A stretch of DNA of 18,161 nt from an uncultured archaeon (GTDB lineage: Archaea > Iainarchaeota > Iainarchaeia > Iainarchaeales > 0-14-0-20-30-16), in assembly GCA_964595665.1 (NCBI GenBank), contig CAZQQS010000011.1, positions 1-18,161 of the forward strand, given 5' to 3'. This document shows, in pieces, positions 3,391-11,061 of the stretch. Both the position numbers and the translations under genes were made by a program. The notes below the pieces were generated by a model that searched no databases, was not told the origin of the DNA, and was given only the letters and a program-made list of their open reading frames with translations. Within the stretch, counting starts at the first letter, position 1; every line of letters starts with the position of its first letter.

Positions 3391-6300
3391 CTAATTTTCA
3401 TTTACAAATACTCTTAAATTATTATTATTTGAAATACTAGAAATACAGTATTTTTTTTCAGCAATGCCATCAAAAACATCTTGAATAGTATCTAATTCTA
3501 ATACTTCCTCAGAAGGATTTAATTTACTACTCATATTTCTTTGATCAATCAAGCTTAAAGTATGATCACCATACAATCTTGTTTTTAATATTTGAGTACC
3601 CAAATTCTTTACATTAATTGCATCAAATCTAATCCCAAATTTATTATTTTCCAATCTTTTTGAAAATAAAGTATAATTCAAATCATTACCAGTTAAATCA
3701 ATTCCTCTAGGGATAAATTCCCAAGGAATAGCAATATCATAATTCTTACCATTAGAAGAAATATTATAACTAAAACCAGTATCTTTACTTTGAGAAGTAT
3801 TTTCTAATAATATATTGTAATCCGTATATTCCAAATTATTTGCAAATTTAAAATTAAATGTATTGCCTAAACCTTTAGATACTTTTAAAATTGTACCTCG
3901 CTCTTTATCATTTAATTCAGCAAAAGAAAATGTATTAGAAACATTCAAACTAGCTTTTGGGCTAGAATCTGAAGCATAACTTCCAATCAAAGTTTGACTT
4001 ATAACTTCATCATCAAACTTAACAATATTTCCTTTTACTTCAGTACCATATCCAACTCTATTTAATTGAGATTCATTTATTAAACCAACTCTAGAATCCA
4101 AAGGCATATAATAAAACACATTATCATTTTCCACAGAATTTATTTTTTGGAACACAAATTCAAAATTCGCATCTTTAACATTTATAGAACCTTCTGGAAA
4201 CTCTATATTAATATGCATACCGTATTCCCCAGGCACCAATACAGAATCTTTATTTTTAGATGTGTCAGATAAATTAATAAATCTAAATTCTTTATTTTTA
4301 ACTTTAGATTCAAAATCTAATTCTTTTAATAATATATCATATTGAATCATAAAATCAGTATATAAAATAGTTTCTACAAAATCATTTACAAAATCTTCTG
4401 TATAACCATCTTTCATTAAATATACTCTATAATGCAACAAATCTTGAATTTCTTCCAAAACTTGTATTTTATTATCATCTTCATTAGAATAATTTACATC
4501 ATAAAAATCATTTAAGATCATTCTACCATTTGGTAAAACTCCTGTATTTGGTTTTTTTGTAATACACCCTCCAGGATATTTTGTTAAAGTATATTTTATA
4601 TCACTACCAAAAGAATCAATTATTTTATTATCCGAATCTCTTAAAAATAAATTATACTTGCCTTCTTTGATAGTATTAATTCCATCTCTATATGTTGCAT
4701 CAAAATCTTTGTCTTTAACATTTGGAACAGATGAATATGGTGTTTTTGAAATGAAAACACATTCTCTTTTATATTTGCCATTAAATTCTACAAAAGTACA
4801 TCCAGCATTAAAATCATAATTCTCATTAGAATTAGAATTATTAATCATAGATAAATTATATTTTGGATCAGCCATATTATCTACTACATCTAATTTACTC
4901 ACTTTCAAATACAATCCTTCTTTTTCCAACCACACATTTACTAATTCCATTTTAAAATCATCATTAGTAGGTTTTAAATCAAAATTTATTTTTTGTGATG
5001 GTTCTAAATATGGACATTGAGGGGTTTTTAAAAAACTCTTGGCTCCAGATTGATTATAATAATCATTATTAAATGTTTTAACTCTTTGCAAAGCAGAAAT
5101 AAATAATTGAGTTGCATCACAATATCTTTTAGGATTGTTATTATCATCCAATTCAGAACAAAAATTTTCATCTATATCTTGCCAATTATAATCTACTTTT
5201 GGCACAGCATCTTTACCAGTAAAACCAATTATATTGCCTGAAGCATCTGTACAAGGCAAACCTAAATTCTTAGAACTCTTTTCTTCTTTTAATGGATTTT
5301 TAAATGCAATTCTAAATGAAGAATCAAATGTTCCAAAATACTCGTTTTTTAAGAATACAGGAAATGTTTTAAAACACCATTCTTCATTACAATCATCATC
5401 TTTATAAAACTCTTTAAAAGAAACATTATTAAATACCAAATCTACTTGTCCAACACCAGAATTTCCACCTTTAACTCCACCTAATGAAGCTCTAGACCAT
5501 AATTTAGGATCTAATTTACATCCAACAACAACATAAGTTTCTAATAAAGCATCACTATAAGAGCCACCCCCACATTTAGGGTAAAAAGTTACACTTTTTT
5601 TGTCAGAAGATATTTCATATGGTTTATCCCAAGAACATCCTTTAAAAGTAACATCATCATTTTTTACTACTTTTTCGTCAACACTATCCAAAGTCAAAAC
5701 CTCGGAAACAAAATAATCTCCAGGGCAATCAACAGTAAACTCTTTGGTCCACGAGTTGGGGACCATTCCAATATGCGCTTTAATAAAATCCTTGACAATT
5801 CTATAATTATATTGATTTTGACCAGTCAAAGTAAACATCAAATCATAATTATCTTCCAAATTAATATCTTGAGTTGAAAAATCCATTTCTTGTAAATCTC
5901 TTTTAATATCCTCTATAATTACAAAACTACTTTCTTGCCAATCATCTACTGTCGATATTCCAGTAGTAATCAAAACCATTAAAGCAATTACTACTAAAGC
6001 AACCCCTACTCCAATACAAATTGCTGGTGCTCCCGCACACCCAGCACCAGCAGCAATAGCTGCGTTTACTGCTCCAGGCATCGCACCACTAGCCGCAGCA
6101 CCTGCGGCAGCACCTATCTCAGCTGAAGTAACTCCTGCTGTTGCTGCTGTTGTTGTTGCTGCTGTTGTTGCTGCTGTTGTTGCAGCATTTATAACTATAT
6201 TGGCAGCCATATTTATTGCAACAGCAGATATTTTTGCTGAAGATAAAATCATCATTAAAGTTCCGCCGGTTGCTAAAAGAGTACCTGTAATTGTTCCAGC

Positions 6301-9300
6301 TAAAGCACCTTTTCCACCCATAGCTGAATATTTTAAATTGGTATTTTCAAATGATAAAAATGAATGTATATCCTCTTCACCGATTAATCGAATTCCCGAA
6401 ATATTTAAGTCACCATCTTCATCTCTAGCATTTAATAAATTTATAAATACATCTTTATTTGTTAATCGCAAATTACTCGGAACATCAGCATTATACAACC
6501 TAATTACATCACTAGTATAAGTATTAGGATTATTATCATTCACATCTACAATTAAAAAAGGAGATTCTGAAAATAATAAATTTGATGCTGTAGTTTTAAC
6601 ATTTATTGGTATGAATTTAGTTCTTTTAAAACCAACATCATTAGGTTGCTTTACAAAAATATCTAATGCATAAGCCCCAGAAATATTAGGTCTAAACAAT
6701 TTAATTTCTTTACTATCATCAATTCTAAAATTAAAAGATCTATCATCTGCAAAATTATCAAATTTAAAACCAACATAAGAATTTATACCTTTTAAATCAA
6801 TTATATCCCCACAACCTTTAGAATAATTTCCTTGCGAATCTTTACATAATTGAACATCTAAAGGAACATTACAAATATTCTTAAAAGTTAAATTAAATTC
6901 ATTTTCTGAATTACTTACATTTAATGCAGTATAATCTACACCATCAAAACCATTAGGATTTAAATTCAAATAATTAATTTCTTCATCATCATAAAATACT
7001 TTTATACAATCATTAATATTAATTCTAGATACATCAAAAGATACTTCTTTAGATTCTATTTTCTTTACACCTTGAGAAGTTTTAACAGTTCCAAAAACTT
7101 TTAAAGTTAATTCTTGTTTTCCATAAGATCCAGAAGGATTAAAAATCAACTCAGAAAGTAATAAATCTTGTTGATTAAAATTTGAAGTTATTACTTTAGG
7201 CACAGAAAAATTTAATGCTTGAGAACCATAATTATTCAAATTAAAAGTATAATTACCTAAACTTAATGATCCTTTCTTATAATTCAAAACAGCATAAAAA
7301 TTATCAAACTCAACTGGCAAATGATAAACATCAACTCCAGATAAAACTTCAATTATACAATTATTATATATCTCTAAAGGAACTCTTACAGCTGTGCCAT
7401 CAGATGCAAAACTAGAAGTTGTAGAATTTATTGCCAATTGCAAACAATCAGAATTTGTTGGAGCCCCATTTGAAACCAAATTTACTGTAAAAGGTAAAAC
7501 TCTTTCAAAATTATCGCTTTCAGTTTTAAAACTTAAAGTTACAAAACCATTTACATAAGCATCTCTATCTAAATCTTCACCAATTTCTTCTCTTAAAGAT
7601 GATTTAAAATAATCTTTTAAATTTGTTTTGGCTTCCAAATCATACTCAAAGTTTGCAAATAATTCTCTACCCAATATTTCTGCTCCAGAATATGATTGAG
7701 TAATATATGCTTGCATTTCCTCATAGTTTAAAAAATTATAGATATCTTGAGAATAATTACTAAATTTAATTTCAGAACTATCTAAAACAATAGTTTTTGC
7801 AGTATTATTAATAATTCCTAAATCTTTAAACATTTCAGGTATTGCGGGATAACTTAAACTAGTTTCTAATTTTTCAACATCAAAATCAAATATTTTACTA
7901 GTAACTTTTAAATCAGGGGTAAAATCTTTTTTTGAATAACCATCAAAACCATCTTTTTGAACCATTATTTGAATATAAGTTCCAGGCAATAAATCTCTAG
8001 CATTCAATTCACAATTAACTTCTCCAAATTGATCAGTTAATAAATTTCTACAACCAGGATATATTTTATATGTCGTATCTTTTGGGCTTTTTAACTTAAA
8101 ACTTACAATAGCGTCTTTAACTAAAACATCTGCTTCGTCTTTTACAATTACTTTAACTTCTTGAGTACTTTCAGGAGCTAAAACTTTATCTGGGAAAAAA
8201 CTAACTTTGAATTCTTTTTGTGAAATTGAATCAAATAAAATAGACATTGCAGGTTTACCATTTACAACTATTTTTTTATCATCATCAATAACTAAAAAAT
8301 TAATATAAGATTTACTTTTACTAATAGCTCTAAAACCCAAATCCCCAGTAACATATCTATTTTGGAAAAAATTATTTAATACAAATTTTTCTTCAAAAAC
8401 ACCAAATAAACTTTTTACAATATTTTTATTTATTTCATTATATTGTAAATTCAATTTTAATAATTCTATAAAAGATCTATCAGTAGGTGAATTCTTTACA
8501 GTAGAAAAACCTTCTTCAGAAGATAAAGCATTATATATTTGTAAATATCCAGAATTTATTTCTCCATTTGTTCCAGAAATTCCATTAATCAAATCAAAAT
8601 TCAAAGAATATTCATTTCCAGCATTTATTGTAAAAACATTATCAAAAGAATCAACATACAAGTCATTTTTTAAATCTAATAAATTATATCGCCCACAAAA
8701 ACTATTTGGATAACATAAAACTTTTGAACCAACTAAAAATTCTTTAGTTTCTTGAACTACAGAAGAATCATCTACTTTTAAATTCCAATTTACTTTTAAA
8801 GCATCATATAATTTAACAGATGAATTATTTTGAACTTTTACTTTATAATAAACCCTATAAATTCCTTTTTTTGCTTTAACCCATTTTGAGTTAATTATTT
8901 TTGCATTTCCCAAAGTAATATTTTTATCTACATTGCTATATTTTATATCTGTATTTGCAGAACTAAAAACATCAATAGCATAAATTTTTTCTTGTTCTAC
9001 TGAAAGATTATCTCCTAAAGTAAAATCTAATTCAATTTTATTATCTACATCGTAAACTGCAAATTCAAAACCCAAATAATATGTTCCACCTATACTCATA
9101 GTTTTAATATCTTCTTTACCCATTTCTTCAAAAACACCTAAAAATTTCATTCTGGGAGAACCTTCTCTTTCAGGTTCCAAATAAACTTTATCTTGCCAAA
9201 CATAATTAGTCATTAATAATCTTGACTCACTATAATAAGACATATAATCTTCCATAGAAACAACATAATACATTTTATTCCCAGCTTTGAAAGGATATAA

Positions 9301-10920: not shown

Positions 10921-11061
10921 AAAAATCCCAATCAATACAATATATTAATAATGTATTATAGAATAAATACTAAAAGTATATAAACATTTTCGGATTTTTC
11001 CTTTATTTTTGTTATGTAGTATGCCCAAATCCTTTATAAACAGAAATAGAGTTTTTTTATT
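10921..11061. promoter_or_regulatory. Divergent intergenic promoter region for the giant gene (minus) and the beta-CASP nuclease gene (plus), with archaeal TATA boxes placed for leaderless transcripts.
   Basis: TTTATAAA at 11033-11040 ends 22 nt before ATG 11062. On the other strand TTAATATA (plus-strand tatattaa, 10941-10948) lies 21 nt before ATG 10920. An archaeal TSS normally lies ~25 nt downstream of the TATA centre, so transcripts would start at or next to the ATG. Confidence 0.5.

Follow-up and report, generated by a model that had tools for sequence, protein, structure and literature searches.

The 18,161-bp stretch of DNA analysed here (hereafter the window; contig CAZQQS010000011.1 from an uncultured archaeon of the Iainarchaeota, G+C ~24%) contains, on its minus strand, the gene of a giant protein of 2,509 amino acids (aa), together with part of a second giant gene (giant B), a stand-alone gene paralogous to the C-terminal part of the giant, and the 3' end of a stalk-type gene (Table 1). 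The open reading frame (ORF) of the giant runs uninterrupted over 3391..10935, which makes 2,514 codons counted from a TTG at 10935. Given the base composition of the window, ~9.6% of random codons on this strand would be stops, and the chance of a stop-free run of this length is ~1e-110. The true start is most likely the ATG at 10920, giving a protein that opens with MSLQTKFDELMSKNNF, because the closest full-length homologue, which opens with MGFQAKFDELMSKNEF, aligns there.

An initial annotation of this DNA had described a protein of about 2.5k residues in four parts: a short cytoplasmic tail with a signal-anchor transmembrane (TM) helix, a large beta-sandwich region, a Gly/Ala/Thr hydrophobic segment of ~120 aa, and a C-terminal domain of ~850 aa. 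Apart from the refined start, this layout was recovered here, with a tail of 26 aa, an anchor of high hydrophobicity on the Kyte-Doolittle (KD) scale, and a hydrophobic segment of 124 aa. The N-terminal ectodomain and the C-terminal domain are named below the stalk and the head, and the segment between them the hairpin.

Table 1. Features of the window. Residue numbers of the giant are counted from the ATG at 10920.
Feature	Position	Strand	Remarks
Giant gene	3391..10920	-	2,509 aa; stop codon 3391-3393
Cytoplasmic N-tail, aa 1-26	10843..10920	-	Predicted; Lys-containing; shortened form of the family tail motif
Signal-anchor TM helix, aa 27-50	10771..10842	-	FMPSLVFFGLILLIIVVLIVFLVW; KD 3.67
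Stalk, N-terminal ectodomain, aa 53-1534	6319..10764	-	~1,480 aa; tandem immunoglobulin (Ig)-like/CarboxypepD_reg-like beta-sandwiches; 14 Cys
CarboxypepD_reg-like copy 1, aa 227-297	10030..10242	-	Pfam PF13620; family profile, independent E-value (i-E) 9e-14
CarboxypepD_reg-like copy 2, aa 406-482	9475..9705	-	Pfam PF13620; family profile, i-E 8.5e-20
CarboxypepD_reg-like copy 3, aa 501-566	9223..9420	-	Family profile, i-E 3.9e-09
CarboxypepD_reg-like copy 4, aa 922-997	7930..8157	-	Family profile, i-E 5.5e-04; beta-sandwich in the AlphaFold 2 (AF2) model
AF2-modelled stalk region, aa 590-1540	6301..9153	-	Confident all-beta sandwich string; final ~40 residues disordered
Gly/Ala/Thr hydrophobic module, aa 1535-1658	5947..6318	-	Glycine-zipper hairpin of the head module
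Hairpin helix 1, aa 1547-1580	6181..6282	-	Borderline hydrophobic, KD 1.59
Ala/Thr/Gly loop between the helices	6025..6180	-	52 aa; lineage-specific
Hairpin helix 2, aa 1633-1656	5953..6024	-	Strong, TM-like, KD 3.13
12-nt tandem repeat	6135..6183		4.1 copies
Head, C-terminal domain, aa 1659-2509	3394..5946	-	851 aa; 14 Cys; no known family
Head motif C..G.TG..A.PKVDYNW..C..YCDATQ	5107..5253	-	Near-invariant Cys, Trp, Asp
Head helix motif	4378..4425	-	YLMKDGYTEDFVNDF; Asp residues invariant or near-invariant
Head motif YYMPLD...RVGYG	4045..4113	-	Conserved
Giant B	1..3382	-	ATG at 3382, 8 nt past the stop of the giant; paralogous stalk; leaves the contig
Stand-alone head paralogue	15273..17687	-	804 aa; Sec-type signal peptide (..PFAHA↓G), GxxxG hairpin at aa ~75-131, then head
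Stalk-type gene, 3' end	17780..18161	-	Separate gene; leaves the contig
MBL/beta-CASP protein gene	11062..12042	+	326 aa
AAA_14/DUF4143 ATPase gene	13252..14601	-
Two-gene cassette	14671..15132	-	DUF2683-like (87 aa) and RelE-like (65 aa)

A family of stalk-hairpin-head proteins

A word-indexed protein search, with the head and with profile A1, returned a single protein, P0001, 48% identical, which is a fragment of the orthologous gene on a 4.9-kb ENA contig. An exhaustive HMMER run with a three-sequence profile was used instead, and gave 432 cluster representatives (clustering at 50% identity) at E<=1e-3, 354 of them at E<=1e-10; the orthologue of the giant, P0002, scored 1,044 bits. Two size classes can be told apart: giants of ~2,200-3,250 aa, in which the head always lies at the extreme C-terminus, and stand-alone heads of ~760-1,100 aa. 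The giant of the window shows the whole family signature: a signal-anchor TM helix followed by a beta-sandwich stalk (~1,400-1,700 aa in the family), a Gly-rich uncharged helix-turn-helix (57 uncharged residues, placed 240 aa upstream of the PKV motif, for ~140-240 aa in the family), and, at its extreme C-terminus, the head motifs PKVxYxW/YCD, YLMxDGYxxDF and YYMPxDG..RxGYG.

All named members come from metagenome-assembled genomes of Ca. Diapherotrites, Ca. Iainarchaeum or Ca. Micrarchaeota, where they are annotated as "hypothetical" or "carboxypeptidase regulatory-like domain-containing" proteins; those of Ca. Diapherotrites/Iainarchaeum are the named relatives nearest to the giant. As judged from these named members, the family appears restricted to DPANN lineages. 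Full-text literature searches found no description of it. The architecture is not peculiar to the gene of the window, the 432 representatives being already present in databases.

Split and fused forms of stalk and head

The giant has a bipartite look because it joins a stalk gene and a head gene that are also found separately in the same window. There, the stand-alone head (809 aa for the ORF p809, if read from a TTG at 17702) is collinear with the hairpin and head of the giant (BLASTP 4e-20), and lacks the Cys-rich insert present at ~aa 1940-2130 of the giant. The 3' end of the stalk-type gene lies upstream of it, 77 nt from TTG 17702, or 92 nt from ATG 17687, and encodes a C-terminal domain of ~95 aa preceded by a low-complexity linker of the (PAAA)n/(PA)n type. 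In the closest relative (L003, Logan SRR27710297), the upstream stalk gene is at least 1,758 aa long, carries CarboxypepD_reg, aligns to aa 544-1324 of the giant and overlaps the head gene by 4 nt.

The same arrangement recurs further away. On a JGI contig (P0015 locus), with genes of 2,489, 1,620 and 979 aa, an N-anchored stalk gene then a head gene stand beside a fused giant. A Micrarchaeota genome (L004) has genes of 1,344, 1,018 and 3,100 aa, again a stalk and head pair beside a fused giant, and its 1,018-aa protein matches the head profile at E 4e-68. In an Iainarchaeum locus (L002), we found a stand-alone head of 960 aa, a fused giant of 2,412 aa that shares 30% identity with the giant of the window over the stalk and 26% over the head, and a second giant. 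The latter (12435..19847 of L002, 2,470 aa) is a complete orthologue of giant B, whose stalk is 24% identical to that of the giant. It has no clear hairpin, and hhalign identifies its C-terminus as a divergent head core (probability 97.9%, E 3.6e-13).

Altogether, each of the five loci examined has several paralogous stalk/head units, including one or more split and one or more fused, and three stalk/head sets were counted wherever the contig permits it (the window, L002 and L003). From these comparisons, the giant is the fused, single-polypeptide form of a conserved stalk and head gene pair. By the Rosetta-stone argument, such an alternation between split and fused forms suggests that stalk and head work together.

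The tail, the anchor and the stalk

A helix equivalent to the signal anchor was found in all of the 40 giants listed, out of the 89 that exceed 2,000 aa. Ahead of the anchor, a tail motif, MG....Y..LED(K/R)(W/Y)Y...D....P.Y..(I/V)D.ID..PSF, is kept across the family (N-termini of P0003-P0055), and is shortened and degenerate in the giant of the window. Conservation of this motif suggests an equally conserved intracellular partner, or an insertion signal.

At least five tandem CarboxypepD_reg/PEGA-like sandwiches had been proposed initially for the stalk. This count was not recovered: Pfam recognises two copies (aa 230-309 and 408-485), and a hidden Markov model iterated on the family finds four (Table 1). 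With PF13620, the whole giant scores 38.3 bits over two stretches, above the gathering cut-off of 32.3; taken singly, pieces of the giant reach 30.1 and 26.3 bits and stay under it. The all-beta-sandwich picture was, however, supported by the AF2 model of aa 590-1540 (30-sequence alignment, mean predicted local distance difference test (pLDDT) score of 81), which is beta apart from two short helices. A Foldseek search of the PDB with this model gave 291 matches at E<=1e-3, all of them to arrays of multiple Ig or macroglobulin (MG) domains, among which hydin-like ciliary proteins, alpha-2-macroglobulin/complement and PrgB. The TM-scores of these matches are low (~0.1-0.2), in keeping with a beads-on-a-string arrangement. 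We estimate that the stalk comprises roughly a dozen domains, and would measure tens of nanometres if extended.

The head domain

The C-terminal domain, announced initially with ~850 aa and about 18 Cys, has 851 aa and contains the Cys motifs quoted at the time, with a lower total of 14 Cys, two more being in the hairpin. Neither this head nor the heads of 32 relatives gave any match in Pfam, NCBIfam or PHROGs, and sequence searches of the PDB (profiles A1 and A2) gave none on the head, beyond an insignificant match on the hairpin that is described below. AF2 modelling of the head module (32-sequence alignment) gave a mean pLDDT of 66 and a predicted template modelling score of 0.60. The final ~620 residues, mostly at pLDDT 70-90, form beta-sandwiches and a helical sub-domain, and the hairpin region is unmodelled. 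With this model, Foldseek found nothing in the PDB at E<=1e-3, and no BFVD structure reached a meaningful TM-score (all <0.1). The domain, which the initial annotation had not recognised as any characterised family, therefore has no recognisable family in all these databases, BFVD included, and Foldseek names no known fold for it. Sub-domain matches to MD-1/ML-like and CBM21 structures (probability <=0.89, TM-score normalised on the query <0.1) were too weak to name a fold. Hits to GMT-wHTH (on p809), the TIGR04134 lipoprotein, PdsO, Methylase_S and NAPRTase were under cut-offs, unsupported in relatives, and were discarded as chance. The collinear match of p809 and the two size classes of the family mark the head as an independent evolutionary unit; its multi-subdomain fold would be novel. 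There is no hydrophobic segment beyond aa 1661, and so no C-terminal TM helix on the head.

Could the head be an exported enzyme or toxin, for instance a hydrolase acting on the envelope of a partner cell, delivered on the stalk in the manner of polymorphic toxins such as CdiA? Its acidic and aromatic motifs (YLMxDGYxxDFxxDF, YYMPxDG, RxGYG) could form an active site or a sugar-binding site, and the giant and giant B combine shared stalks with divergent C-termini. However, no enzyme or toxin family was matched by sequence or by fold, and a head of 850 aa conserved over 432 clusters is unlike the short hypervariable tips of toxins. Moreover, no small immunity-like gene follows the giant, the next gene, 8 nt downstream, being another giant. 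We therefore regard an enzymatic or toxic head as improbable.

The glycine-rich hairpin

The hydrophobic module contains 37 Ala, 18 Gly and 17 Thr among its 124 residues, with 6 charged residues and 2 Cys. In the family-wide alignment, G-x-P(W) separates an amphipathic Gly-rich helix from a second helix that ends in ..TY(N/S). The stand-alone head p809 has two runs of four consecutive GxxxG, which is a textbook glycine zipper, and the close relatives P0002, P0003, P0011 and L2_A have an uncharged central stretch of 55-75 residues, made of two helices around a PVAGW-type turn. Hydrophobicity of the hairpin (maximal KD over 19 residues) extends across the family from ~1.0, i.e. amphipathic and not TM, up to 3.1 in the giant. 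The hairpin is a conserved glycine-zipper helix-turn-helix, predicted to be membrane-embedded in this lineage and just amphipathic in many relatives; the membrane-embedded central module of the initial annotation is retained for the lineage, and does not extend to the family.

The 12-nt repeat of Table 1 codes for a (TTAA)n part of the Ala/Thr loop. The loop has no counterpart in close relatives, and therefore looks like a recent slippage expansion in a membrane-associated segment.

When the family profile was compared with PDB sequences, the sole match was SlyB (7ojf), non-significant (E 0.8) and placed exactly over the hairpin. One family member matched C19orf12 at 1e-3, and the Pfam Gly-zipper families matched neither the giant nor the 32 relatives. 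The SlyB and C19orf12 matches would denote resemblance, not membership, and that to SlyB seems largely compositional. A match to PHROG 342, "internal virion protein" (aa 1536-1622, E 2.8e-4), was rejected as compositional, because it is confined to the Gly/Ala low-complexity hairpin.

Topology of the giant

The initial annotation held that, if the central module is a two-helix hairpin, both large domains face outward. Several observations back this. First, stand-alone heads open with classical cleavable Sec signal peptides (..VSA↓DE, ..VFA↓QE, PFAHA↓G). Second, a strongly hydrophobic segment is missing from the middle of most fused giants, whose heads must then lie on the same side as their stalks. 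Third, Cys residues are invariant or near-invariant family-wide in both halves, in alignments that used trimmed or shorter sequences and not full-length giants; conserved Cys of the giant include those at aa 736/742 and 1890/1921/1934. Fourth, stalk and head are both acidic, unlike the cytoplasmic neighbour proteins. Finally, close relatives have a clean two-helix hairpin of 55-57 uncharged residues. Counts of N-glycosylation sequons were uninformative as a topology marker, because in this Asn-rich proteome they match the shuffled expectation. From these sequence features, we infer that both large domains are extracellular.

An odd number of membrane passes in the central module would instead leave the 851-aa head in the cytoplasm and make the giant a receptor-like protein. 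Such a topology could be read from the single strong KD segment (aa 1633-1656), the other one being borderline, and from the single hydrophobic block of 36 residues in relative P0005. It fits poorly with the cleavable signal peptides of stand-alone heads, the lack of a central TM helix in most fused giants, which puts the head on the side of the stalk, the conserved Cys of the head, and the two clear helices separated by a tight turn in close relatives. We hold a cytoplasmic head to be very improbable indeed.

Neighbouring genes and other observations

Neighbours of the giant include genes for a NOG1-type GTPase and an MBL/beta-CASP nuclease, which points to a chromosomal archaeal context. The MBL/beta-CASP protein (326 aa) is similar to TIGR04122, the "ligase-associated DNA damage response exonuclease" (E 9e-41), but its 140 bits are far short of the 325 set as cut-off for that model, and it has no Pfam match. 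L003, otherwise syntenic, lacks the AAA_14/DUF4143 ATPase gene and carries, in the corresponding region between NOG1 and the exonuclease-like gene, a gene for CorA; presence or absence of the ATPase is a local indel between close relatives. The final 12 residues of the ATPase (DDYTNRVLGVIK) recur at the start of the DUF2683-like ORF, a repeat that hints at an insertion scar. The DUF2683-like and RelE-like genes (PHROG 1213 for the latter, E 2e-4) are probably a toxin-antitoxin pair, and the cassette is kept at the same position in L003 (87 and 91 aa).

G/C skew is strongly negative (~-0.3) along minus-strand genes and almost nil at 11001-13000, where the two plus-strand genes lie. The skew is therefore one of coding strand (purine-rich mRNA), and not of replication.

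In an orthologue of the giant (L001, ENA ERZ28596802 scaffold_2583), an in-frame TAA was found at 1181..1183, where the window encodes Leu (GKQE*SFKIFGT versus GKQELTLKVFGT in the window), and the gene caller broke the gene at this TAA. The gene may have decayed to a pseudogene, the TAA may be a variant of the assembly or of the population, or it may be read through.

A proposed role at the cell surface

We propose the following scheme for the giant. A short conserved cytoplasmic tail and an N-in signal anchor would hold ~1,480 residues of tandem Ig-like beta-sandwiches outward. The head would also be exported, starting with its glycine-zipper helix-turn-helix, followed by the novel domain of ~850 residues. 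In the giant, the hairpin may be hydrophobic enough for insertion as two helices during translocation, and the chain would then be pinned twice to its own membrane (aa 27-50 and ~1547-1656), the two large domains remaining on the outer side. The predicted role is that of a cell-envelope or cell-contact structure, for adhesion to a partner cell or a surface, or for envelope scaffolding. Binding or assembly might fall to the head, and membrane association or lateral oligomerisation might be driven by the glycine zipper. We lean, though slightly, towards this scheme taken as a whole, in which roles in adhesion, binding or host contact are putative.

Several points weigh against this scheme. In many relatives, hairpins are too weakly hydrophobic for a TM anchor (maximal KD ~1.0-1.6), so that anchoring cannot be the family-wide role of the hairpin. 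In the giant itself, helix 2 alone is unambiguously TM-like, helix 1 being borderline and containing a Lys, and no positive charges are found in the putative cytoplasmic turn. In the AF2 model of the head module, the hairpin falls within residues 1-177, where pLDDT is <50 and no fold is given with confidence. Finally, a host-specific adhesin would account no better than a core envelope function for the tight synteny with housekeeping genes, or for the three paralogues present in each genome examined.

One such envelope structure would be an S-layer-like lattice, in which stalk and head, split or fused, would be the canopy and the anchor of a two-component cell wall similar to SlaA/SlaB, and not an adhesin. 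The proteins are large, acidic, Ig-domain-rich and membrane-anchored, the order of the two genes is kept across Iainarchaeota and Micrarchaeota beside housekeeping genes, and the conservation of the cytoplasmic tail speaks for a role at the core of the cell. Ig folds are typical of the S-layer proteins of archaea, which are poorly recognisable by sequence (bioRxiv 10.1101/2023.10.27.564410). However, Micrarchaeota, which carry the stalk-hairpin-head family, already own a separate, highly abundant S-layer protein of 101 kDa, similar to PF05123 (bioRxiv 10.1101/2021.04.28.441871). S-layer proteins are described as having 40-200 kDa and few sulfur-containing residues (same reference), whereas the giant reaches ~280 kDa and contains Cys. 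No S-layer Pfam family (e.g. PF05123/PF05124) was matched, at E<=1 on pieces of the giant or at E<=0.01 on the whole giant and 32 relatives, and three or four divergent paralogues (20-30% identity) per genome also speak against a lattice. An S-layer is in our opinion unlikely, if still worth weighing.

A second alternative gives the hairpin a more active part: the stalk would project hairpin and head towards a partner cell, and the hairpin would enter the partner membrane, starting the cytoplasmic bridges seen between DPANN cells and hosts. Most members export the hairpin, which is amphipathic, Gly-rich and free of charges, and which comes first in the mature stand-alone head; it resembles the helical-hairpin Gly-ridge fusion peptide of influenza HA2. 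A stalk of tens of nanometres is long enough to span two envelopes, and the family is seemingly confined to DPANN lineages. Against such a membrane-inserting or fusogenic device, no structural likeness was found to viral proteins of BFVD (TM-score <0.1) or to solved fusogens of the PDB, whether of the viral class I/II or of the archaeal fusexin kind, the head has no C-terminal TM helix, and no obvious heptad-repeat coiled coil was seen. In addition, the hydrophobicity of the giant's hairpin is sufficient for the membrane of the producing cell to retain it while the protein is translocated, and some Iainarchaeota are thought to be less host-dependent. We consider it quite unlikely that the hairpin acts in this way. 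Pushed further, stalk-hairpin-head proteins might be a DPANN machinery for breaching the partner membrane, with a hairpin similar to a fusion peptide or a pore-former and a head recognising the partner envelope, and the three paralogous sets might form a single complex that nucleates an intercellular bridge. This is a long shot. If it were true, the head would represent a class of fusogens or penetration modules new to prokaryotic cell-cell contacts.

The attachment of DPANN cells to other cells, and their exchanges with them, are poorly understood, and most of the surface proteins put forward as candidates are singletons whose Ig folds are generic. Here, a coherent family of 432 clusters has a fixed plan (anchor, Ig stalk, glycine-zipper hairpin, novel head) and three paralogous sets per genome. 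It offers concrete targets for experiments, the head for antibodies and the search of binding partners, the hairpin for membrane insertion, and a domain of 850 residues for Pfam to add. If the head or the hairpin does act on membranes, it would bear directly on the formation of cytoplasmic bridges.

Comparison with known systems

Alpha-2-macroglobulin, complement C3-C5 and TEP proteins (7q1y, 4rtd) share MG-like arrays with the stalk (Foldseek E 1e-15 to 1e-12, over >900 columns), and a faint bMG3 Pfam match was seen on the L003 orthologue of the neighbouring stalk. They differ by TM-scores of ~0.1 with the stalk of the giant, a beads-on-a-string likeness only. That the giant is itself a thioester protein of this kind was ruled out, its sequence having no CGEQ motif and its all-beta stalk model no helical thioester domain.

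Glycine-zipper hairpins such as those of SlyB/PCP lipoproteins (PDB 7ojf), the Pfam Gly-zipper families and C19orf12 are comparable to that of the giant family: a helix-turn-helix free of charges, GxxxG in several copies, and two ends that lie, by prediction for the giant, on one side of the membrane. In contrast to these, the hairpin of the giant stands between two very large ectodomains, and hydrophobicity in its family goes from amphipathic to fully TM-like.

Two-component S-layers of Sulfolobales (SlaA/SlaB) and S-layer candidates of DPANN archaea (Micr_00292, NEQ300, MJ1_0160) also pair the gene of a large, acidic, Ig-rich exported protein with that of a membrane-associated partner. No sequence relationship links them to the giant, whose size is far greater, whose sequence includes Cys, and which comes with several paralogues in each genome.

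SPEARE proteins of Nanohaloarchaeota are likewise giant surface proteins of DPANN archaea; they reportedly combine protease, adhesion and restriction-endonuclease-like domains, and are said to have been proposed for host interaction. These domains were not detected in the giant of the window, and the lineages differ.

Fibrillar adhesins, e.g. enterococcal PrgB (PDB 8beg), share with the giant a cell or membrane anchor, a run of tandem beta-sandwiches and a large non-repeat terminal module, and the Ig domains of PrgB were matched by the stalk at E 2.8e-14 with Foldseek. No recognised adhesive or ligand-binding domain was found in the head with Pfam, NCBIfam or the PDB. Unlike these adhesins, the giant is anchored by an N-terminal signal-anchor TM helix and not by a sortase or C-terminal anchor, it has an internal glycine-zipper hairpin, and its architecture also occurs split into two genes. 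Giant surface proteins with Ig stalks are known as a kind, and what is novel here is the head domain, the internal glycine-zipper hairpin, and the organisation in three sets, split or fused.

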